A stretch of DNA of 64,000 nucleotides from an uncultured Hyphomicrobiaceae bacterium (GTDB lineage: Bacteria > Pseudomonadota > Alphaproteobacteria > Rhizobiales > Rhodomicrobiaceae): NCBI GenBank assembly GCA_964407075.1, contig CAYOUE010000001.1, positions 1,478 through 65,477 on the forward strand, given 5' to 3'. Every line of letters begins with the position of its first letter. Positions within the stretch are counted from its first letter, which is position 1. The translations under genes and the position numbers were made by a program. This document shows, in pieces, positions 53,302 to 64,000 of this stretch. The notes below the pieces were generated by a model. The model searched no databases and was not told where the DNA came from. It was given only the letters and a program-made list of their open reading frames with translations.

Positions 53302-53895
53302 TCAGAACGAGAGCCGCGTGACGCCTTCTTCGCGCCTGCGCATTTCCAGCACGATCAGCAGGACGAGGAAGACCCAGAAATTGAGCCAGTGTATGACCCA
53401 GAAGCCTGCGAGGACGCCGACAGTCAGTACGATCCAGACCGAGAGGCCGATGAGGACATGCGCAGCCATGCCCCTGAGCGCGCCGAAAGATCGCCAGCCC
53501 AGAACCGCGATGACGCAGTTGACCGCCGTAAGCGCCCCTGCGCAGCCCAGCAGGATCTGCGAAAACAGGATATGCCGGGCCGGGATCGTCTCGCCTGACG
53601 CGAAAGACAGGTCTCCGATGTAGCCAGCCAGAATATTGACGAAACGGACTTCATGCCAGAAGCCCGAAATATCCCAAAGGCTTGCGGCGGAGACCTCCTT
53701 TGTGAAATCGGCGAAGACGCCGGTTGCGATCGCAAGCAGGCTTCCGCAGGCGATGGCGAGGCTCCAGCAGAACGGGATGGAGAACATGCCCCGGTTGTCG
53801 AGGCGCTCCGCAAGGTCGAGCGCGCCCGTGTGCACGAGCCAGGGCAGGACGACGATCAGCAGCAGATTTTCTGCCGCAACGGAAAGAAAGGACAT
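53302..53895 (-). CDS. Polytopic membrane protein (about 6 TM), function unknown
   Basis: Clean ORF with alternating hydrophobic helices. No family recognised. Confidence 0.6.
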   Translation of the reverse strand: MSFLSVAAENLLLIVVLPWLVHTGALDLAERLDNRGMFSIPFCWSLAIACGSLLAIATGVFADFTKEVSAASLWDISGFWHEVRFVNILAGYIGDLSFASGETIPARHILFSQILLGCAGALTAVNCVIAVLGWRSFGALRGMAAHVLIGLSVWIVLTVGVLAGFWVIHWLNFWVFLVLLIVLEMRRREEGVTRLSF

Positions 53896-53974: not shown

Positions 53975-55036
53975 TCATTCAGCCGTTCCCGAATTCGCCC
54001 GGTTGAAAATACGGGATTCGATCTTCGTGATCCGGTCCTCGATGTTCTCGATCTTTTTGGCCTCCACCTGTGTCATACTATAGGCGTCGTCGAGCGTCTG
54101 GTTCTGCAGCGCCGTATATCTGAAAGGATCGAAACTCAACACGAGGGCAGGCAACGGAAAGATATTCACGTCTATCCCGCTCAAACGGACGTTGCCCGAA
54201 TATTCCCCGGCTTGCGCGAGCTTGCGCAGCAAAACGACTTCGAAGAAGGCCATGATCCCTGATGTGCGTTCAGCGTAGTCGTCGACCTTGCTGCTGAAAG
54301 CCGCAAGCTCCTCGGACGAAAGATTGCGGTCGTGCCGGAACGAAACCGTCAGTCCGGGGATCAGCCCGACGCTGACCTGCACGTCCACAAGGGCAAACCC
54401 GCTTTCGTCGACCAGAAGGGCGAATTCGCTGGCCCCCTGAGCGCGTAATCGCTCCTTGACGCCGTCGACAACGTCGTCGGACCAGTCCTGCAGGATCGAG
54501 AAGCTGTTATATCCTGTCAGAGCCGCATTCCCTGCATTGTTCATGGCGGAACTGGAACTCGACACGACCCAGTCGCCGGCATCCCTGGCGGCGCTGACGG
54601 CGTTCTCCGAATGAAGCCTCATCCAGCCGGTCGCGTCCCACGCCGCGTCGATTGCCTCGTCCGAGCGCAGCTTTATCCATTCGCCCGCCTCTTCAGCAGC
54701 TTCCGCCATGGCGCGGCTACCTGCGATGATCCATTCGCTCGTACTTCTTGCGGCGGAGACCATCGGATCGACGGCGCCGCTACGAATGGACTGCTCGATA
54801 TAATCCCAGTCCGGGTCGTAGCCCATTACGGTCATGCCATAGGACGACGACTGAGCCGTATACGCAAGCGGGCTTCCGGGGCCCTTGCCATGCGCAGCGC
54901 CGGGTGAGTCTCCGTCGAGCGGCATTGCGGGCGAGCGCAGGGACGTGCGCGTCTCGCTCTCGGCCATTTCGGCGGAAATGGGACCGTTCGCCAAAAATGC
55001 GAAGAGAAAAACTGCTGCTGAAAGGCGGATCGTCAT
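53975..55036 (-). CDS. Secreted protein with four 18-aa Trp-centred repeats and a C-terminal coiled-coil-like tail, function unknown
   Basis: Signal peptide MTIRLSAAVFLFAFLANGPISAE. Repeats are VSAARSTSEWIIAGSRAM / AEAAEEAGEWIKLRSDEA / IDAAWDATGWMRLHSENA / VSAARDAGDWVVSSSSSA. Confidence 0.65.
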   Translation of the reverse strand: MTIRLSAAVFLFAFLANGPISAEMAESETRTSLRSPAMPLDGDSPGAAHGKGPGSPLAYTAQSSSYGMTVMGYDPDWDYIEQSIRSGAVDPMVSAARSTSEWIIAGSRAMAEAAEEAGEWIKLRSDEAIDAAWDATGWMRLHSENAVSAARDAGDWVVSSSSSAMNNAGNAALTGYNSFSILQDWSDDVVDGVKERLRAQGASEFALLVDESGFALVDVQVSVGLIPGLTVSFRHDRNLSSEELAAFSSKVDDYAERTSGIMAFFEVVLLRKLAQAGEYSGNVRLSGIDVNIFPLPALVLSFDPFRYTALQNQTLDDAYSMTQVEAKKIENIEDRITKIESRIFNRANSGTAE

Positions 55037-55050
55037 TCCGGGGATCTCCC

Positions 55051-55335
55051 TTAGAACAGAATGGGGGCGACCTCGTCAGCACTGCGCGTGAGTTTCTGGT
55101 GAACGCGATAGACGAGCGCGCGCCGGCGCATTTCGGCTGGCAGGACGGAACTGCCCGTCCGTCCGGAAGCGGCCGTCAGATCGGGAAGGAATCCGGTCGC
55201 TGTCACCATGCCTGCAGTCGCTTTGGACAGAAAATAGGGCGCTTCCCTTTCGGATGAAAAATCGGCGACCAATGAGGCGGAAAGGATCGCCAGCCCGATC
55301 GAGGCGGCAAATCCGACCTGAGACGACCTCCTCAT
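55051..55335 (-). CDS. Small secreted protein, function unknown
   Basis: MRRSSQVGFAASIGLAILSASLVA signal-like N-terminus. The stop lies 14 nt before the next gene start. Confidence 0.5.
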   Translation of the reverse strand: MRRSSQVGFAASIGLAILSASLVADFSSEREAPYFLSKATAGMVTATGFLPDLTAASGRTGSSVLPAEMRRRALVYRVHQKLTRSADEVAPILF

Positions 55336-55454
55336 GAAACCCCGCTTGCGATAACTGGGATGGACTTCAGGGCCACGATAGCGTCGAGGAATTACATTTT
55401 CCATAATCCGAAATGCAAAATTGCGTGGAACGTGCGTAGGGCTTGCTGACCGAA

Positions 55455-55859
55455 CTACCGTCCGACGTCATCGGAATCGATCTGCCCTGCGAGCCGCGCG
55501 CGTATGGCCGAGAAAGAGAGGCCGATCGTGAGCAGCGTCGCGACAGAAACCTGGGTCATGACGGTGACGACCCAGCCGCCCGAGACGGTCACGAGCCCTA
55601 GATCGACCAGCATGATGTTAAAGAGCAGGAGAAAGACGGCGACGAGCGCCACACCGCCCGACTTCATCGAGCGCAACATGCTGCGTATCAGAAAGATATA
55701 GCCTGCAAGCATCGCTATTCCGAGCGAGGCGGCGAGCGCGCCGGGGGCGTCGCCCCCGATCGCCCAATGATAGAACGAACGTCCGCTCGGATTGTATGTC
55801 GAGAAGACGAGCAGCATCGTGAACAGCCAGCGAAGCAGAAAATTGACCGGCCCGAACAT
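55455..55859 (-). CDS. Small 4-TM membrane protein, paralogue of 59772-60230
   Basis: LLRWLFTMLLVFSTYNPSGRSFYHW, IFLIRSMLRS and TIGLSFSAIRARLAGQ align with the corresponding segments of the 59772-60230 product. Confidence 0.7.
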   Translation of the reverse strand: MFGPVNFLLRWLFTMLLVFSTYNPSGRSFYHWAIGGDAPGALAASLGIAMLAGYIFLIRSMLRSMKSGGVALVAVFLLLFNIMLVDLGLVTVSGGWVVTVMTQVSVATLLTIGLSFSAIRARLAGQIDSDDVGR

Positions 55860-55865
55860 TCCGGC

Positions 55866-56654
55866 TTACCCCCCGCGCGCGGAAGCGATGGCAAGAAACG
55901 GTTCAGGCGAAATCGAAACCGGACCGCTGAATGGATAGAGAAGCTGTGCGGACAGGACCATCATCGTGATGACCGAACTGGAGATGATGGCGACCAGAAG
56001 CAGGTGAATGAAGACGCTCGGCCCCCGCAGGAACCAGCCGATGACGATGGCCATTCCGGCGCCGACCAGAAGCAGGTGAAAGATAATGTCGGACAGCAGC
56101 GGATCCGGCGCGACGGAAATTCTCTCGACCCGCCGCGAAACCACTTCGTCCAGCAGGGCGGACAGACGTATTTTCACCAACCCGCCGGCTCCGTCTCCGG
56201 CACTGATGACGGCCCTGTCGATCCTGTTGAGCCAGTCGATCGCTTCCGGGCTTTCGCCGCCATTCGCCATGAGCGGCCATTCCTTGATGGCGACCGTCTC
56301 GGAATAGCCGCGCACCGCATCGCTGATCGCAGCGCTGGCCGATTCTCCGGCGAGGGGAGCCTGAGCCACGAGGCGGTTGAGCGCGGCTGCTTCATGAAGG
56401 ACGTTCTGCCGGGCTTCGTTGAACTCGGAAAAGCCGTAGACGATGATGAACCCGAGGACCACCGCGTAGATTTCTGCCGCGACCTGGTTCTTTGCAGGTC
56501 CGACAGCGCTCGCGGAGGTCAACATTCCCGTGAAGATCGTTCTAGCGGCCATCGTACCGATGATGGCGATAAGAATCGTCGGCAGGATTATGACGATAAA
56601 GGCCACGTCGAAGGATAGCGACCCGAGCCAGTTCAGAAAGGATGTAGGCGCCAT
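55866..56654 (-). CDS. Membrane protein with a TM pair at each end and a central soluble domain (resembles the DUF4239 type)
   Basis: Topology is read from the sequence. The C-terminal ...LLYPFSGPVSISPEPF motif recalls DUF4239 proteins (recollection only). Start at the internal ATG 56654. Confidence 0.6.
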   Translation of the reverse strand: MAPTSFLNWLGSLSFDVAFIVIILPTILIAIIGTMAARTIFTGMLTSASAVGPAKNQVAAEIYAVVLGFIIVYGFSEFNEARQNVLHEAAALNRLVAQAPLAGESASAAISDAVRGYSETVAIKEWPLMANGGESPEAIDWLNRIDRAVISAGDGAGGLVKIRLSALLDEVVSRRVERISVAPDPLLSDIIFHLLLVGAGMAIVIGWFLRGPSVFIHLLLVAIISSSVITMMVLSAQLLYPFSGPVSISPEPFLAIASARGG

Positions 56655-56665
56655 GCTGGACTCCG

Positions 56666-57160
56666 TCACTCGGGATGATTCGTCTTGCGGCCGGCCGCGC
56701 CGGCGGCGGCGTACCATCGGCGCGAACGCAGGAGGCCGCGCGGGCGGGCTTTGAGCGAGACGCTTTCACACGCCGCCTTTACGAGATCCTCCGCCTCGGC
56801 CTTCGATATTTCGTTGCGTGCAAGTCCGAGCGCAGCTTCGACCATGAACTCGAACCTGTCCTTTGAAATGCGGTCCGAGCGGGTCTTGAAGCCCCGGGCG
56901 ATGTCCAGCAGCATCCGCCGGACCAGCGACTCCGTCGAGAAGCCGTCGCAGATGGCGGCGCCCACCAGATAGCTCTTGGCGTCGGCCGGACGCAGACCGA
57001 GCTGGAATATGGCGTTGTCGATGATCTTCCATTCGCCTTCATTGTCGAGATAGCGGCATTCAGCCGCCCTGAGACGCATGTAATCGAAGATCGTTGCGCT
57101 GTTGCCGGATGCGCCCCCGCTGCCGCCGACGGCCGGATTGCCCTCAATCATCTCGACCAT
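56666..57160 (-). CDS. Soluble hypothetical protein, first gene of the minus-strand operon
   Basis: Clean ORF 11 nt upstream of the next gene. Two similar helical segments are present (AIFQLGLRPADAKSYLVGAA / EAALGLARNEISKAEAEDLVKAA). No family recognised. Confidence 0.55.
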   Translation of the reverse strand: MVEMIEGNPAVGGSGGASGNSATIFDYMRLRAAECRYLDNEGEWKIIDNAIFQLGLRPADAKSYLVGAAICDGFSTESLVRRMLLDIARGFKTRSDRISKDRFEFMVEAALGLARNEISKAEAEDLVKAACESVSLKARPRGLLRSRRWYAAAGAAGRKTNHPE

Positions 57161-57504
57161 TCTTATCCTGTCGTTCGTTGCTTGTCTGCCCGCAAGGCGG
57201 CAGCCGGTTGACCGGTGCAGCCTCTATTCGATACAGCGACTATTATTTTGTGAACTTTAAATTATCATGAAAGCCAGCAATAAAAAATCTTATTATTGTT
57301 GTCATATGATCTAAAAATATTTATAAAATACGCATTATTTATTTTCGTTAAGAGTATTTGAATTGTGTATTTTCGATTTTATACTCTGATATAGCGATTC
57401 ATTCACGCAGTTCGGCTAGATTTTTCAGCAATGAATCAGTGCCGCCTTACGCGTCCGGCAGCCCAGACACCTGCTGGACGGCGTCTTTCGTTCGAGTTCC
57501 GGCC
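57161..57504. promoter_or_regulatory. Strongly AT-rich divergent intergenic region between two operons of unknown function
   Basis: The stretch 57235-57420 is dominated by A/T runs (for example tattattttgtgaactttaaattatcatg and aaaaatatttataaaatacgcattatttattttcg), in an otherwise GC-rich window. Confidence 0.45.
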
Positions 57505-57921
57505 ATGAGCGCAGACCAGGACAGCCCCGTCAGCCAGGCGTGCTTCGAGCGCGCTGCCTGCGGCTTGCAGCCGGCCATCACCATGCAGCCTTTAGTGCAG
57601 GGCGAGGCAGGGAGGCCGCTCGGCATCGTGATCGCCGAAGTCGTCTGCGAAGAGGATGAGGAAAACGGGCTGTTCGCAGGGCTGGGCGCTTTCGTCCGTG
57701 CGCAGTTGCCCGCCGATCGCGCAGCCGTGGAGATCGCGCTGGAAAGACTGCTCGGCGAATTGTGTCGGAAAGGGCGGAAGTTTAACGCCGGCGCAATCGT
57801 CTCGACCCATATCAAGCTGCTTCGCGGCACTCATGCCGACGGGCGCAAGCTGCTGAAGCTGATTGCGACAGGCACAGCCGTGGCCTTGCCGTCACCAGAT
57901 CCTTCGTCCGTACACGTATAA
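57505..57921 (+). CDS. Hypothetical soluble protein
   Basis: The ORF is in frame from 57358 (TTG). ATG 57505 is chosen because the upstream part lies in the AT-rich spacer. GTG 57439 is an alternative start. Confidence 0.45.
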   Translation: MSADQDSPVSQACFERAACGLQPAITMQPLVQGEAGRPLGIVIAEVVCEEDEENGLFAGLGAFVRAQLPADRAAVEIALERLLGELCRKGRKFNAGAIVSTHIKLLRGTHADGRKLLKLIATGTAVALPSPDPSSVHV

Positions 57922-57939
57922 ACATTGTAAAGGTCCGAC

Positions 57940-58875
57940 ATGCGTCTTCCTAAATTTCCCCACTTCTCCCTGCCGGGCGTCCTCGTTCTGAGCGCCTGCT
58001 TCGCCGTGACCCCGGCATGGCCCCAGGAGGCGGGGACCGGCGCCAGCGCGGAAAGTCCCGCCGCGCTTAGGACCGTCTATGTCGCCGATCCTGCGGCTGG
58101 CTGGTTCGAGGCCTGGTCGGAAGCCAGTCTCAAGGCGGACGGATGGCTGTACCGTCCCGACATACGGATCAAGTCCGGCGCAGACATGCTGGCGGCGGTT
58201 GCGTCCGACCCGTCCGCAATCGGTCTGATTTCACGCGGCGAACTGGCGCGTCTTGAAACCGAGGACACCCCAATCGTCACCGCGGCGCCGACCGGGCAGA
58301 GCGTATGCGCGGCGTTTTCCGTGAATGCGGAACGTCCCGAGGACAGTTTCGGCGATTTTGCGCTGAATCACGGGAGCTTTGAAGTGCTTGTAACCGCCGA
58401 TACGCTGGCGATTGCGGAAGCGCTCGCGCGGGCGCATGGATTGCACGGCCGGATGATCGTGAAGCTGGTCCGGTCATCCGAAGCGCAGGCGCAAATCCTG
58501 TCAGGCAAGCCGGCTATGGCCGCATTTCCGGTTCTGCCTGGAGGGCTGCCTGCCGCCGCTGCGAACGCGCCCGGCCTGCGCTTTATCGGGTTGTCGAGGG
58601 CCGCAGCCGGCGCCCTGGAGTTCCGTGGCTTCGTTCGCGGAGGTTTCCGTACGTCCTTGCTTCATCAACTGCCGCTCGTCGAAGGGGTTGCCACAGCTTG
58701 CGACGAGATTGTCCGCATCAGCGCCCGCGACCCCGCGCGCACGTCCGGACCATATGCGGCGCGGGGCGGCTCATGGTTCGGCTTCCTGTCCGGTTCGGAT
58801 CTCGAAATGCGCGTTCGTCAGGCTCTCGACACACTGATCTCCCTCTGGCGGAACGATATGGAAACAAGAGGGTAG
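57940..58875 (+). CDS. Periplasmic protein with a solute-binding-protein-like appearance, function unknown
   Basis: Signal peptide MRLPKFPHFSLPGVLVLSACFAVTPAWPQ. Alternating alpha/beta character. No firm family recognised. Confidence 0.6.
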   Translation: MRLPKFPHFSLPGVLVLSACFAVTPAWPQEAGTGASAESPAALRTVYVADPAAGWFEAWSEASLKADGWLYRPDIRIKSGADMLAAVASDPSAIGLISRGELARLETEDTPIVTAAPTGQSVCAAFSVNAERPEDSFGDFALNHGSFEVLVTADTLAIAEALARAHGLHGRMIVKLVRSSEAQAQILSGKPAMAAFPVLPGGLPAAAANAPGLRFIGLSRAAAGALEFRGFVRGGFRTSLLHQLPLVEGVATACDEIVRISARDPARTSGPYAARGGSWFGFLSGSDLEMRVRQALDTLISLWRNDMETRG

Positions 58876-58878
58876 GCG

Positions 58879-59775
58879 ATGTCGGAAGCTGCCGGGGAAT
58901 CTGTAGACGGCAAGGATGCAGCCGAGCGCGCTTCCGGCAAGTCCGGTGCATTCGGAACATTCGACGGTGCACGCCGCCGCTCCGGGATCGCAGGACTCGG
59001 CGTAGCTCTCGCCAGCGCTGTCAGAAGTATGGGCGGCGCGGCCCGAGGCGTCCTGCGGCGCGTAAAGGCGGTGGGCGGCAGCGTTTCGGATCGTTTTCTG
59101 GCCGCCTCTGCGCTGGCGCTGGCAGGCATCTCGTTCGCCACGCTCGCGCTCCATCTGCCCGAAAAACAGTCCGGGAGGCTGGACGCCGTCGAACGCTCGA
59201 TCGCCGGGATCGAAACGCGCCTCGGAATTCCATCGGCCCGCCGCGCGGCCTCCGACCCCGCAACAATCCTCGTAGCGGTTCAATTCGTGACGGCGTCCGC
59301 TGAGCGTTCCGCGCCATTCGACACCGCTGTCGCGGTCGCCATAACGCTGATTGGAGAGCACCCGGTCATAGGCCCGCTTCTGGATACGCTCCTTAACGAT
59401 GCCATGGAAGGCGTTCCCGGCCATTACGACCTTCGCGCCGAATACGGCAAGAAGCTGGCCGAGCTGAAAAGTCAGGATCTTCTCGTGGGAACGGACGGTG
59501 CTGTGCCCGCGCCGTCCTTCCCGTTCTCCGGTCTGTTCGGTTTTGGCGGATCCGCGGGCAGCAATCAGGACGGCGCCATCATCGAACGGATCACGTCCGA
59601 TGTCGAAGCCGGCGACTTCGCCAGCGCAGTGCAATTCGTCGTCAAGCTTGACGGGCGGCTGCGTGAGGCATTGGAAAGCTGGCGCGAACAAGCAAGCCGC
59701 CGCGCTGCGCTCGACGCGACCCTGAAAGAGCTGCGCCGGGCGGCTTATCTGGACATTCTCGAAACGCCGTCATGA
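58879..59775 (+). CDS. Membrane-anchored mitofilin/Mic60-like (COG4223-type) protein
   Basis: One TM helix (FLAASALALAGISFATLAL). ...SAPFDTAVAVAITLIGEHPVIGPLLDTLLNDAMEGVPGHYDLRAEY... and C-terminal VEAGDFASAVQFVVKLDGRLREALESWREQASRRAALDATLKELRRAA follow the pattern of alphaproteobacterial mitofilin-domain proteins. Confidence 0.6.
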   Translation: MSEAAGESVDGKDAAERASGKSGAFGTFDGARRRSGIAGLGVALASAVRSMGGAARGVLRRVKAVGGSVSDRFLAASALALAGISFATLALHLPEKQSGRLDAVERSIAGIETRLGIPSARRAASDPATILVAVQFVTASAERSAPFDTAVAVAITLIGEHPVIGPLLDTLLNDAMEGVPGHYDLRAEYGKKLAELKSQDLLVGTDGAVPAPSFPFSGLFGFGGSAGSNQDGAIIERITSDVEAGDFASAVQFVVKLDGRLREALESWREQASRRAALDATLKELRRAAYLDILETPS

Positions 59776-60230
59776 AGAGTTACGCCAACGTCCGCAAGGC
59801 TTTGCCATTGGCCGGCATTCTTGCAAGGTTTCTCCTCGTGACGTTCCTCACGCTGGCGACGTTCAACCCGTCCTATTATTCCGTCTCGACCTGGATCGTC
59901 AGCGATGGTTCGCTCATCAGCCTGAAGGCTGTCACAGGATTCGGGCTCGCCGCGGTCTGGATCGTCCTGTTGCGCATGTCGCTTGAAGGTCTCGGATGGC
60001 TGGGACTCGGCTTTACGGGCATGGCGGCTCTGATCGGGGCGATCCTGGCCGCGCAGTTCGGGTTGCTCGACGGTGTGGCCGGATACACGCTCGTCCTGCT
60101 GCTCCAGATCGCATTCGCCGCCACCATCACTTTCGGACTCGTCTTTTCCTACTGGGTGCGTCAGGCGACGGGCCAGTCCGCCGTCTACAAGCCCGATTTA
60201 CGCCCGGCGACCTTTTTCAGGTTCTTCTGA
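59772..60230 (+). CDS. Small 4-TM membrane protein, paralogue of 55455-55859
   Basis: ATGA start/stop overlap with the upstream gene. LARFLLVTFLTLATFNPSYYSVSTW, IVLLRMSLEG and TFGLVFSYWVRQATGQ align with the paralogue. Confidence 0.7.
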   Translation: MKSYANVRKALPLAGILARFLLVTFLTLATFNPSYYSVSTWIVSDGSLISLKAVTGFGLAAVWIVLLRMSLEGLGWLGLGFTGMAALIGAILAAQFGLLDGVAGYTLVLLLQIAFAATITFGLVFSYWVRQATGQSAVYKPDLRPATFFRFF

Positions 60231-60262
60231 CCCTGCTGCTCAACCGCCGCCTTTGCGGCGCA

Positions 60263-61228
60263 TCAGGTCCTGCCGCCGTCCCAGTCCGCGATCGCCGTAT
60301 CCCTTGACGTTCTGACGGGAAGCGAGGCGGGCAGGAAGGTTGAGCCTTCCGCGATCAGAAATTCGCGCAAGGCGCCCGCAGGCGGCGTCAGGCGTTTGTC
60401 GGCATGGTGCACGACGCGCCATTGCCGCCATGCGGGCAAACCCTTCACGTCCAGAATGGCGAGCCGCTTCGTTTCGATTTCCGCAGCGATGGTGTGGGCG
60501 GATATGAACGCGATCCCAAGCCCGGCCATAACCGCCTGCTTGATCGTCTCGTTCGACGGCATCTCCATGCCCGCTTTCGGCTCAACACCGGCCTCACCGA
60601 AAAAGCGGGTCATCAGTCCTCTCGTGCCTGACCCCGCTTCCCGCATCAGGAAGATCTCGTCCCTGAGGTCTTTCGGCGCGAGCGCGCGCCTTGCACAGAG
60701 AGGATGGCCGGGCGGCGCGATGATGACGTGAGGATGGTCGCCGAGGACAGCGCTTTCCACGGCAAGGTCTTCCGGCGGGCGCCCCATGATGACGATGTCG
60801 AATTCTAGCGCGGCGAGTCGCCGGATCGTTTCCTCGCGGTTGCCGATGAAAAGCCTCAGGCCGAGTTCGGGATATTTGCGGGCGAAGGCTCCAAGCGCGG
60901 CGGGTGCGAAATATTTCGCGGTGCTGACGACGCCGATCGAGACCGATCCGCCCTTCAGCCCGCGCATGGCGCTCAGTTCTTCCCAACAAGCGGTCAGCTC
61001 GGTTTCGATGCGTTTGGCGCTACCGAGCAGCACCTGACCCGCTGCGGTCGGCTTCATGCGGTCCCGCGTTCTCTCGAACAGAGGCAGGCCGAGCAAGTTT
61101 TCGAGTTGCCTGAGTTGTTGCGTCACCGCAGGCGGCGTCACGTTCAGCGCTTTTGCCGCGGCGAGTACACGCCCGGACGCCGCGATCGCAGCGACAATGC
61201 GCAGTTGCTTGAGGCTGATGCTCCGCAT
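60263..61228 (-). CDS. cbbR: LysR-family regulator of the Calvin-cycle operon, CbbR
   Basis: LKQLRIVAAIAASGRVLAAAKALNVTPPAVTQQLRQLENLLGLPLFER HTH. Divergent from cbbF-cbbP-cbbL. Confidence 0.85.
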   Translation of the reverse strand: MRSISLKQLRIVAAIAASGRVLAAAKALNVTPPAVTQQLRQLENLLGLPLFERTRDRMKPTAAGQVLLGSAKRIETELTACWEELSAMRGLKGGSVSIGVVSTAKYFAPAALGAFARKYPELGLRLFIGNREETIRRLAALEFDIVIMGRPPEDLAVESAVLGDHPHVIIAPPGHPLCARRALAPKDLRDEIFLMREAGSGTRGLMTRFFGEAGVEPKAGMEMPSNETIKQAVMAGLGIAFISAHTIAAEIETKRLAILDVKGLPAWRQWRVVHHADKRLTPPAGALREFLIAEGSTFLPASLPVRTSRDTAIADWDGGRT

Positions 61229-61376
61229 GTCATGAGATTAAGAAATTCTATGCATAAATGAAACAACTATTAATTTTACTAAACCGACAGTTGGCTTCAT
61301 AGTGTCGGACAGAAAAAGATCAAGCCGGACAGCGAGCACAAAGAATGAAAAGTTCAGCCGTTGGGAGGCGGCCGGC
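61229..61376. promoter_or_regulatory. cbbR-cbbF divergent control region (AT-rich)
   Basis: The AT-rich spacer is gagattaagaaattctatgcataaatgaaacaactattaattttactaaa. This is the expected location of CbbR operators. No site is assigned. Confidence 0.4.
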
Positions 61377-62405
61377 ATGGATACCCAGGTCACGCTCGAC
61401 CTCTATCTGAACAGTTGGACACAGGCCGATCGGTCTCGGCGCGCTGTGGCGTCGACGATCAACGCCATAGCCGGAGCCGCAGGCGGCATCGCGGCGCGGA
61501 TCGCCTCGGGACCCCTGCTGGGCGAGCTTGGCGCTTCGGTCGGCGAGAATGCAGACGGCGACGATCAGAAGGAGCTGGACGTCTGGGCCAACAGCCGCCT
61601 CGTCGCGGAACTGCGCGGCGCACCCGTTGCAATCGTCGCATCGGAAGAGTTCGAGGACCTGTTGCTGCTGGACGCCGATGCACCGCTGGCCGTCGCGATG
61701 GACCCGCTGGACGGTTCATCGAACATCGACACGAATGTGTCCATCGGAACGATCTTCTCGATTCTGCCCGGCAAGGGAGAACGAAGTTTCGATCAGCCCG
61801 GTTCGGAGCAACTGGCTGCCGGCTACGTGATTTACGGCGCGCAATGCGCTCTCGTTCTGACTGTCGGGGAAGGCGTGTCGATCTTCACGCTCGATCCGCA
61901 GACCCGGATCTTCCGTCTGACCGCGGATCATGTCGTCATACCCGCCGAGTCTGACGAATATGCCATCAACGCCTCGAATTACCGCCACTGGAGCGACGCC
62001 ATACGCTCCTACATCGACGATTGCCTCGCGGGCGAGGAAGGCCCGCGCGGGACGAACGTCAACATGCGCTGGATCGCATCCCTGGTCGCGGAATGTCACC
62101 GAATCCTGATGCGTGGCGGGGTGTTCCTCTATCCGCGCGACGCGCGCAAGGGGTACGAACGGGGCAGGCTGCGGCTGATCTACGAGGCGAACCCGATCGC
62201 CTTTCTGGTCGAGCAGGCCGGCGGTCAGGCCATCGACGGGTTCACCCGGATTCTCGACATTGCGCCCGAAACCGTTCATCAGCGCACGCCGCTCATGTTC
62301 GGCTCGGCGGACGAGATCGGCCGGATCGCCCGTTACAAGGCAGACCCGAACACGATCTTCGAGCGCTCGCCGCTGTTCGGGCGGCGCGGCCTTTTGCGCG
62401 TCTGA
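61377..62405 (+). CDS. cbbF: Class 1 fructose-1,6-/sedoheptulose-1,7-bisphosphatase
   Basis: DPLDGSSNID metal-binding motif and a GGVFLYP..... signature. GGGAGG RBS before the ATG at 61377. Confidence 0.9.
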   Translation: MDTQVTLDLYLNSWTQADRSRRAVASTINAIAGAAGGIAARIASGPLLGELGASVGENADGDDQKELDVWANSRLVAELRGAPVAIVASEEFEDLLLLDADAPLAVAMDPLDGSSNIDTNVSIGTIFSILPGKGERSFDQPGSEQLAAGYVIYGAQCALVLTVGEGVSIFTLDPQTRIFRLTADHVVIPAESDEYAINASNYRHWSDAIRSYIDDCLAGEEGPRGTNVNMRWIASLVAECHRILMRGGVFLYPRDARKGYERGRLRLIYEANPIAFLVEQAGGQAIDGFTRILDIAPETVHQRTPLMFGSADEIGRIARYKADPNTIFERSPLFGRRGLLRV

Positions 62406-62425
62406 CGGCTGCAAGGAGACGGAGC

Positions 62426-63301
62426 ATGTCCCAGAAGCATCCCATCATTTCCGTCACCGGATCGTCAGGCGCGGGAACATCGACTGTCCGCCATACGTTC
62501 GAGCAGATTTTCCGCCGCGAGGGCGTCAAGGCGGCGATGGTCGAGGGCGACGCCTTTCACCGCTATGACCGCAAGGGAATGCGCGAGGCGATGGTGGAAG
62601 CCGAGCGCGCGGGTAACAGGCATCTCAGCCATTTCGGACCGGAATGCAACCTGCTGTCCGAACTGGAGAAGACATTTCGCGATTACAGCGATAGCGGAAC
62701 CGGACTAACGCGCCATTATGTGCATGACGAAGCCGAGGCGGCGCTTTTCGGAACGCCACCCGGCACATTCACGCAATGGAAGCCATTTCCGTCGGATACG
62801 GACCTTCTGTTTTATGAAGGTCTGCATGGTGCTGTCGTCACCGACACTGTCAATGTCGCGCAATATCCCGACCTGAAAATCGGCGTCGTACCGGTGCTCA
62901 ATCTAGAATGGATCCAGAAAATTCATCGCGACAAGGCGGCGCGCGGTTATTCCGCCGAGGCCGTCACCGACACCATCCTGCGCCGTATGCCGGACTATGT
63001 GCACTATATCTGTCCCCAGTTCACGCAGACCGACATCAATTTCCAGCGCGTGCCGACGGTCGATACTTCCAACCCATTCATCGCCCGCTGGATACCGACG
63101 CCGGACGAATCGATGGTCGTGATCCGCTTCCGCAATCCGCGCGGCATAGACTTCTCCTATCTCGTCTCGATGATCCACGACAGCTTCATGTCGCGCGCGA
63201 ACTCGATCGTGATCCCGGGCGGCAAGCTCGATCTGGCGATGCAGCTCATTCTAACGCCGATGATTATGAAGCTGGTCGAGAGGAAACGCCGCGCGGGCTG
63301 A
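62426..63301 (+). CDS. cbbP: Phosphoribulokinase
   Basis: MSQKHPIISVTGSSGAGTSTV P-loop start and PRK-like sequence throughout. The start is internal to a longer ORF-track entry. Confidence 0.92.
   Translation: MSQKHPIISVTGSSGAGTSTVRHTFEQIFRREGVKAAMVEGDAFHRYDRKGMREAMVEAERAGNRHLSHFGPECNLLSELEKTFRDYSDSGTGLTRHYVHDEAEAALFGTPPGTFTQWKPFPSDTDLLFYEGLHGAVVTDTVNVAQYPDLKIGVVPVLNLEWIQKIHRDKAARGYSAEAVTDTILRRMPDYVHYICPQFTQTDINFQRVPTVDTSNPFIARWIPTPDESMVVIRFRNPRGIDFSYLVSMIHDSFMSRANSIVIPGGKLDLAMQLILTPMIMKLVERKRRAG

Positions 63302-64000
<699 letters not shown>

Follow-up and report, generated by a model that had tools for sequence, protein, structure and literature searches.

A second, minimal Mic60-like protein in a conserved envelope gene cluster of Alphaproteobacteria

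In MICOS, the system that organises contact sites and cristae in mitochondria, Mic60 is the one subunit that mitochondria inherited from Alphaproteobacteria. The canonical alphaproteobacterial gene has been studied in Rhodobacter sphaeroides and Rhodopseudomonas palustris, lies in a hemC-hemD-mic60-orf52 locus (orf52 being the name given by Muñoz-Gómez and colleagues to the HemY_N-type, or TPR, gene after mic60) and encodes a protein for which membrane binding, tubulation and an interaction with BamA have been reported (bioRxiv 10.1101/2022.06.14.496148). Here we describe a short Mic60-like gene in a 64,000-nucleotide stretch of DNA from an uncultured Hyphomicrobiaceae bacterium (assembly GCA_964407075.1, contig CAYOUE010000001.1, positions 1,478 to 65,477), which we refer to as the window and number from its first nucleotide. 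The gene, called c below, occupies positions 58879-59775 of the + strand, and its 298-aa product is very probably a true mitofilin-domain paralogue belonging to a subfamily distinct from canonical Mic60.

Like canonical Mic60, the product of c is an alphaproteobacterial protein with a single N-terminal anchor, a predicted periplasmic location for its bulk and a complete C-terminal mitofilin domain of about 160 residues that bears the signature PF/PY, GVP, W and R. Unlike canonical Mic60, which has 390 aa in this genome, it has no central coiled coil and is undetected by Pfam's model, and the clade of short proteins to which it belongs has a C-terminal tail of its own (ELRRAAF/YxDLI), is never found beside hemD or orf52 and always occurs in the order YbjQ-like, binding-protein-fold, Mic60-like, DUF6524. 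Like c, the Mic60 copy in the magnetosome island of Magnetospirillum is a second, divergent one, set in a specialised cluster apart from the hem genes. It retains a TPR partner of the orf52 type and belongs to a known organelle, whereas c has no orf52-like gene, is not known to serve an organelle and has partners of transporter type; the likeness is one of description (bioRxiv 10.1101/2022.06.14.496148). The magnetosome-island copies nonetheless offer an earlier example of Mic60 paralogues put to a dedicated task in the envelope or membrane. The cryptic mitofilin-domain proteins known from Euglenozoa resemble c in being too divergent for standard models and in having a non-standard architecture, but they are eukaryotic, mitochondrial and replace Mic60, whereas c is bacterial and coexists with a standard Mic60 (bioRxiv 10.1101/2025.01.31.635831).

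The assignment of c to the mitofilin domain was made by comparing profiles, and all of the evidence reported here is computational. The close family of c is small, comprising 26 clusters at 90% identity that are 43-52% identical to the window protein, and it is known almost entirely from metagenomes; none of its members carries a functional name or a precomputed Pfam domain. The profile of this close family (A1) was set against one made from canonical Mic60 proteins of the same order, all of them PF09731-positive (A2). The hhalign comparison gave a probability of 96.6%, a score of 76.9 over 150 aligned columns and an E-value, referring to a single comparison, of 5.6e-10. In it, residues 127-287 of the short protein pair with positions 238-396 of the canonical profile, so that the mitofilin region is covered in full. 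When either alignment was reversed, or the columns of A2 were shuffled 20 times, the best scores fell to 11-17 (E 0.25-0.9), and composition therefore does not explain the match.

Searches in both directions agree with this result. In the genomes of two relatives, the A1 hidden Markov model (HMM) retrieved genes that lie beside hemD-like and HemY_N-type (orf52) genes and are thus canonical mic60. Against 1.84 billion representative proteins it returned 131 at E <= 0.001, and 24 of 41 sampled distant matches carried PF09731, with one being a HemD fusion. In an even sample of 401 alphaproteobacterial genomes, a broadened profile of the short family (A7) had matches in 158; a genome almost always had just one, and nearly all lay at the C-terminal end of 400-900-aa frames. 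Reciprocally, a search of a small database with the canonical Mic60 HMM recovered the short proteins (E 5e-10 to 5e-13), and Pfam's Mitofilin model reached 17.4 bits, below its 27.4-bit cut-off, on a short member from the Rhodobacterales. The signature positions (PF/PY, GVP, W and R) of the short family align with those of canonical Mic60. The most conserved columns of the family are the motifs PF, GVP, KLDG, W and RR, with P146, F147, G178, V179, P180, K256-G259, W268 and R275 invariant in 26 homologues. An earlier reading of the letters alone, referred to here as the original prediction, had named c a mitofilin-domain protein on the basis of the motifs PF, GVP and AGDFASAV...L.G...W...R; these are real and coincide with the most conserved columns, and the profile and HMM evidence bears the assignment out.

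Several searches weigh against the homology. The original prediction had proposed the Pfam Mitofilin model and Mic60 structures as checks, and neither recovered the relationship. The model (PF09731) gave no match to the window protein even at E <= 1, and searches of Protein Data Bank (PDB) sequences with A1 and A7 returned no Mic60; their only match was a designed coiled coil aligned to the hydrophobic anchor of c, which we dismissed. A scan against NCBIfam matched no family, and BLASTP of c against the Mic60 of the same genome gave no significant alignment. Foldseek comparison of the predicted structure with the PDB likewise found no Mic60 structure (best E 0.3). We regard this result and that of the PDB sequence searches as uninformative rather than contrary; the Mic60 fragments of solved structure are truncated fusion constructs, and the model used as query has long helices of low confidence.

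The reading frame of c is as first described, with a product of 298 aa and a single N-proximal transmembrane helix. Its ATG lies 3 nt past the stop of the preceding gene, b, with a Shine-Dalgarno-like stretch (AAGAGGG) on its 5' side, and its stop shares 4 nt (ATGA) with the start of the following gene, d. Hydropathy marks one strong hydrophobic segment, at residues 72-93. The flank at 41-69 has a net charge of +5, from which the positive-inside rule predicts a cytoplasmic N-terminus and a periplasmic C-terminus. In an AlphaFold2 model based on 26 homologues (mean predicted local distance difference test, pLDDT, of 73; above 90 over 127-198 and 226-295), a helix occupies 71-91, a single short one spans 100-114, and seven more follow as far as residue 295. 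A central coiled coil is absent, as only the 15-residue helix (100-114) stands between the transmembrane segment and the start of the domain at about residue 126, and the spacing from membrane to domain is about 30 residues, compared with roughly 110 in the canonical copy of the genome. Of the coiled-coil-like stretch that had been proposed, one helix thus stands, but it spans at most 15 residues; the remark that c is shorter than expected holds, the missing part being the coiled coil. The resulting layout is a basic cytoplasmic N-terminus, the membrane segment, the short helix, the mitofilin domain (about 126-295) and the clade-specific tail. The region aligned to the start of the canonical domain, where an amphipathic lipid-binding helix (LBS1) precedes the mitofilin helices, is present in c; here helix 127-143 has a low hydrophobic moment (muH 0.24) and appears hydrophobic rather than amphipathic.

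We then asked how c stands to the canonical gene. The source genome (3.39 Mb in 323 contigs, with an estimated completeness of 94% and contamination of 1.5%) encodes on another contig, C163, a 390-aa PF09731 protein (E 5.4e-11, above the Pfam cut-off), preceded by a uroporphyrinogen-III-synthase-like (hemD-like) gene and followed by a HemY_N-type gene (orf52). This is the canonical hemD-mic60-orf52 locus, and c is therefore a second copy, as a search for a hem-linked gene suggested by the original prediction was meant to reveal. Around c itself there is no orf52-like gene, and the claim that no hem genes lie nearby is upheld: none occurs over some 15 kb upstream, and downstream a cbb (Calvin cycle) operon takes up the 4 kb that remain before the window ends. 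The sister species (G004, an uncultured Hyphomicrobiaceae metagenome-assembled genome, or MAG) is the one other species of the genus with a window-type gene and has both copies, while six other species of the genus gave no match to that gene. Pseudopelagicola and a Paracoccaceae MAG also carry a short copy together with a separate PF09731 gene elsewhere.

In a maximum-likelihood tree built from the last 230 residues of 113 proteins, c stands apart from the canonical ones. A single group on a long stem (Shimodaira-Hasegawa-like approximate likelihood ratio test, SH-aLRT, 97; stem 0.74) unites the window protein with its close family and with more remote short proteins of 241-349 aa. All canonical copies fall outside it, including the one from this genome, which groups with other canonical Mic60 proteins of the Hyphomicrobiales. 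As the tree is unrooted, comes from a quick search on a short domain and has several long branches, we claim from it only that the two forms are separate, and no order of events. Members of the short clade have about 240-350 aa and no central coiled coil. Canonical Mic60 is broadly distributed, whereas a short form occurs in only 2 of the 401 sampled genomes, and this particular clade only in the window's own genome among the 401. The short clade is old and rare, and is present in at least two orders. The view of c as a divergent paralogue in a non-canonical gene context is therefore sustained, with that context conserved in relatives; a recent recruitment is not borne out, the short form being an old, separate clade.

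Other short Mic60-like frames were seen in the sample. Two genomes with DUF6524 carry a second short frame besides a canonical copy, one of 280 aa (L085, G096:C3:360507-361148) and one of 239 aa (L086, G217:C530:1523-2029), and neither adjoins a DUF6524 gene as far as the contigs show. The former belongs to another short clade (SH-aLRT 99) with P0117, P0122, P0125, P0128 and P0150, outside the clade of c.

Gene c is the third of four + strand genes, a to d, whose order (YbjQ-like, binding-protein-fold, short Mic60, DUF6524) is kept in every contig long enough to tell, across eight related loci in which the identity of c falls to 33%. Consensus scans of 57100-60400, the only method applied, detected neither a + strand promoter-like site nor a terminator-like site within the unit. 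Gene a (57505-57921) encodes a 138-aa YbjQ_1-like cytoplasmic protein, with orthologues of 137-140 aa; its start is likely the ATG at 57505 and not the TTG at 57358. The window protein scores 20.5 bits with the Pfam YbjQ_1 model, just below the 23-bit cut-off, and orthologues score 24.6, 28.5 and 36.2 bits. Gene d (59772-60230) encodes a small polytopic membrane protein of 152 aa with about four transmembrane segments, matching DUF6524 (PF20134, E 5.4e-19). It is the four-segment protein whose ATGA overlap with c had been noted, and on four related contigs (L006, L007, L008 and the contig of P0023) the genes as called keep the 4-nt overlap.

The product of gene b (57940-58875, + strand; 311 aa) has no Pfam match. 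Its AlphaFold2 model (pLDDT 75.7) adopts a class-II periplasmic-binding-protein fold, and Foldseek against the PDB returned LysR effector domains and TAXI-TRAP binding proteins (9ibo, 8s4j, 4ddd) at E 3e-7 to 3e-6 with TM-scores up to 0.53, the TAXI-TRAP proteins being the nearest full-length matches. The N-terminal hydrophobic segment reads as a signal peptide, so that b is predicted to be periplasmic, in line with the periplasmic protein that had been placed ahead of c. All 14 aligned homologues share two invariant cysteines, C123 and C254, a pattern suggestive of a structural disulfide. On the 233-kb MAG contig with the closest NCBI relative (L006, 7053-7997), b is split into two overlapping frames, called as genes of 89 and 107 aa; this is either an assembly frameshift or a real pseudogene.

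More distant relatives carry a fuller version of the cluster. These are an Anderseniella MAG, in which c is 33% identical to the window protein, and Rhodobacterales in which c belongs to the P0116/P0120 branch of the clade, namely the Paracoccaceae MAG, a Roseovarius MAG and Pseudopelagicola sp. nBUS_19, the last with a complete chromosome. Where the record is long enough, which is so for Anderseniella, Paracoccaceae and Pseudopelagicola, one strand carries in co-linear order f-g-i-j, a gene for a 373-aa protein, a gene for a fused ATP-binding cassette (ABC) ATPase and MlaE-type permease, and a-b-c-d; f, g, i and j correspond to genes that the window carries on the - strand. The ABC/MlaE fusion lies directly upstream of a-b-c-d in loci L017, L096 and L098, and directly upstream of the fusion is the conserved protein of about 370 aa (L017 1923-3044; L096 2121-3212; L098 1243-2334). 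Nothing in Pfam or in PDB sequences matched the 373-aa protein, whose position is the one that an Mla operon would be expected to give to its MCE/MlaD subunit. Locus L098 is NZ_CP179203.1, at about 2131418-2140332, and combines the full co-linear cluster with a separate canonical Mic60 at about 131 kb. From its strain designation and complete chromosome, we take Pseudopelagicola sp. nBUS_19 to be a cultured isolate; if so, genetics and pull-downs would be feasible on the full cluster.

The fuller cluster invites comparison with the Mla system (MlaFEDB, MlaC and MlaA) and with Mpc, the chimeric Mla-Pqi system of Brucella abortus (PMC12436622). The likeness lies in the ABC/MlaE fusion upstream of a-b-c-d and in a DUF6524 gene that directly follows mlaA in another genome (G438). 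Unlike Mla, no version of the cluster contains a detectable MlaC or MlaB domain, or an MCE/MlaD domain by Pfam, and the window's own version has no ABC/MlaE gene. Searching the window genome for orthologues of the fusion and of the 373-aa protein gave only generic ABC ATPases for the former and nothing for the latter. With both missing from this lineage, the window version appears to be a derivative that was rearranged, divided between two divergent operons and left without the pump, a direction of change that we infer.

DUF6524 also occurs away from c, in 19 of the 401 sampled genomes, and its informative neighbours are of envelope or transport type. It follows a pair of ABC ATPase and MlaE permease genes in two genomes (G075 and G252), directly follows the mlaA lipoprotein gene in G438 and lies near weakly binding-protein-like genes, without a Mic60-like gene, in G034 and G217. 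The same G438 locus (L048, G438:C2, 393-1813 and 15112-17258, the two ranges together covering both arrangements) has a ParA/MinD-type ATPase gene, then a short Mic60-like gene (P0241, 327 aa), then another DUF6524 gene; P0241 falls outside the clade of c on the tree, and the A2 profile found no canonical Mic60 in this genome. The G034 locus (L024, G034:C30, 8545-10012), from a low-GC relative of the same taxonomic order, encodes a 331-aa, weakly SBP_bac_11-like protein with a signal-like N-terminus and, directly after it, DUF6524, with no Mic60-like gene between them. Kinship of b with this neighbour was considered and rejected, as BLASTP found no similarity between the two.

Taken together, these observations are best explained by a minimal Mic60 that serves an envelope module as a scaffold alongside the ordinary copy, an account that we consider somewhat probable. 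That c is the scaffold of an envelope or transport-linked complex in particular is put forward more tentatively. Under this model, an inner-membrane anchor would be followed almost directly by a complete, periplasm-facing mitofilin domain; c would be made from one transcription unit with a, b and d, in translational coupling with d, and would join their products in an envelope complex, of which it would be the periplasmic scaffold or tether, fixed by its membrane anchor. In the lineages with the fuller cluster, such a complex may be built around the fused ABC-ATPase/MlaE-type permease; given that permease, the cargo handled between the two membranes would most likely be lipid or otherwise hydrophobic. 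The lineage of the window would have kept the scaffold module without a dedicated transporter.

A number of points count against this model. No experiment exists on any member of the short family, and gene neighbourhood as such does not prove physical interaction. The coiled coil that mediates oligomerisation in eukaryotic Mic60 is missing from c. Most DUF6524 copies in the class-wide sample have no Mic60-like neighbour within 1.5 kb, so that the pairing is not obligatory, and a literature search found no paper that mentions DUF6524. That no MCE/MlaD domain was detected in any version of the cluster, and that the window's version has no ABC/MlaE gene, falls on the same side, as does the finding that the one MlaE of the genome is a housekeeping protein encoded away from the cluster, on contig C6.

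A bolder form of the same idea, which we think unlikely but worth stating, makes the short Mic60 a periplasm-spanning tether of an undescribed envelope machine, composed of an MlaE-type ABC pump, a binding-protein-fold shuttle and DUF6524 and Bestrophin-like subunits, that would move lipid between the membranes at fixed contact sites. If true, bacteria would have their own version of the link that ties MICOS contact sites to mitochondrial lipid traffic. This would suggest lipid-exchange tethering, rather than crista shaping, as an ancestral job of the mitofilin domain, and the lineage of the window would be a natural pump-less variant.

Two other roles for c can be set against the scaffold model, and we hold each to be improbable. 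The first is that c belongs to a membrane-shaping module, as originally proposed, and bends or anchors a specialised intracellular membrane with the small membrane proteins as cargo or co-shapers. The complete mitofilin region of c, including the stretch aligned to the lipid-binding helices, would suit such a role, as would the membrane or secreted character read for 9 of the 11 cluster proteins. Canonical alphaproteobacterial Mic60 also affects the size of intracytoplasmic membranes, and the magnetosome island contains mic60 and orf52 paralogues (bioRxiv 10.1101/2022.06.14.496148). On the other hand, c lacks the coiled coil, the helix at the start of its domain appears hydrophobic rather than amphipathic, and the cluster contains no orf52-like TPR partner. 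The hosts (Roseovarius, Pseudopelagicola, Anderseniella and Hyphomicrobiaceae MAGs) are, to our knowledge, not known for any special organelle. The conserved partners are instead of transporter type. They comprise a binding-protein-fold protein, small polytopic membrane proteins and, among more distant relatives, an MlaE-type ABC transporter, and they speak for a complex of the envelope, or one linked to transport, rather than for the sculpting of membranes; this part of the original prediction is not supported.

The second role is that of an accessory to solute uptake or sensing, in which b would capture a small periplasmic ligand and pass it, or a signal, to DUF6524, and c would merely position b at the membrane. 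The class-II fold of b, with TAXI-TRAP proteins as its nearest full-length matches, fits this role, as do the DUF6524 genes that follow binding-protein-like genes without a Mic60-like gene in G034 and G217. With its roughly four transmembrane segments, DUF6524 also resembles the small subunit of TRAP transporters, an analogy and nothing closer. By Pfam, however, none of the eleven proteins of the window's cluster is a large permease (DctM/DctQM-like or an ABC membrane domain), and DUF6524 shows no detected similarity to DctQ, Pfam giving DUF6524 alone. The transporter of the fuller cluster is moreover of the MlaE type, which in studied systems moves lipids and not solutes.

That the mitofilin resemblance is a chance or compositional match between alanine-rich, all-helical proteins, c being an unrelated membrane protein, is very improbable. 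The failures of the Pfam model, of BLASTP within the genome and of the PDB searches would agree with it, but the reversed and shuffled controls, the retrieval of canonical Mic60 in its C-terminal domain by the short-family HMMs, the reciprocal detection and the weak Pfam match to a Rhodobacterales member all speak to the contrary. Least credible is an ordinary Mic60 orthologue that has merely lost its hem linkage, a reading refuted by the canonical locus on C163 and by the tree, on which that copy sits with its Hyphomicrobiales counterparts and c in a separate clade.

The short clade thus defines a second, minimal form of Mic60, reduced to an anchor and a mitofilin domain without the coiled coil and missed by standard models, that occurs alongside the ordinary copy and is firmly embedded in a conserved cluster of envelope genes. 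Its existence indicates that the mitofilin domain can work outside the hemD-mic60-orf52 setting, and it bears on the role of Mic60 in bacteria without obvious internal membranes. The cluster also supplies candidate partners, namely DUF6524, the binding-protein-fold protein and, in some lineages, the MlaE-type ABC transporter, and ties DUF6524 and the Bestrophin-like DUF4239 family to a testable context.

Downstream of d, positions 60263-64000 of the window hold a divergent LysR-type regulator (cbbR-like, PF03466/PF00126), followed by open reading frames resembling FBPase and phosphoribulokinase and by the N-terminal part of the RuBisCO large subunit; apart from the regulator's two Pfam domains, these were named by eye from their translations. 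A link between the cluster of c and this adjoining Calvin-cycle operon was considered and rejected, as the flanks differ in relatives and the adjacency is not kept.

On the other side of a-b-c-d, a divergent, AT-rich intergenic region (57161-57504) separates the unit from the - strand operon. Within it, 57235-57420 is an almost pure A/T stretch amid 60-65% GC and contains promoter-like hexamer pairs on both strands. A scan of 57100-60400 gave five sigma-70-like matches, three of them at 57267-57385 on both strands and the other two on the - strand at 59578-59606 and 59875-59902, inside c and d.

The - strand operon begins with gene e (56666-57160), which encodes a soluble 164-aa protein of no known family (no Pfam match), with orthologues 68-73% identical in the same position in L006, L007, L014 and L015. 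Gene f (55866-56717) encodes a multi-pass, Bestrophin-like membrane protein (formerly DUF4239; PF14023, E 3.1e-31) and adjoins the cluster directly in Pseudopelagicola, the Paracoccaceae MAG and the Anderseniella MAG. It is followed in all relatives examined, as in the window, by gene g (55455-55859), a second DUF6524 paralogue of 134 aa (PF20134, E 4e-33). Gene h (55051-55404) encodes a small protein of at most 117 aa with a single transmembrane segment at residues 28-50, and has orthologues in L006, L007 and L015. Gene i (53975-55036) encodes a 353-aa protein of no known family, with a signal-like hydrophobic N-terminus and no Pfam match; close relatives have orthologues of it, and in L017, L096 and L098 an orthologue stands at the head of the co-linear cluster. 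The last conserved gene of the cluster, j (53302-53895), encodes a 197-aa multi-pass membrane protein with several hydrophobic segments and no Pfam match, and its orthologues follow i in the same three loci (phmmer E 1e-31 to 8e-37). Across the cluster, the 9 of 11 proteins read as membrane or secreted are those with a hydrophobic segment or a signal-like N-terminus.

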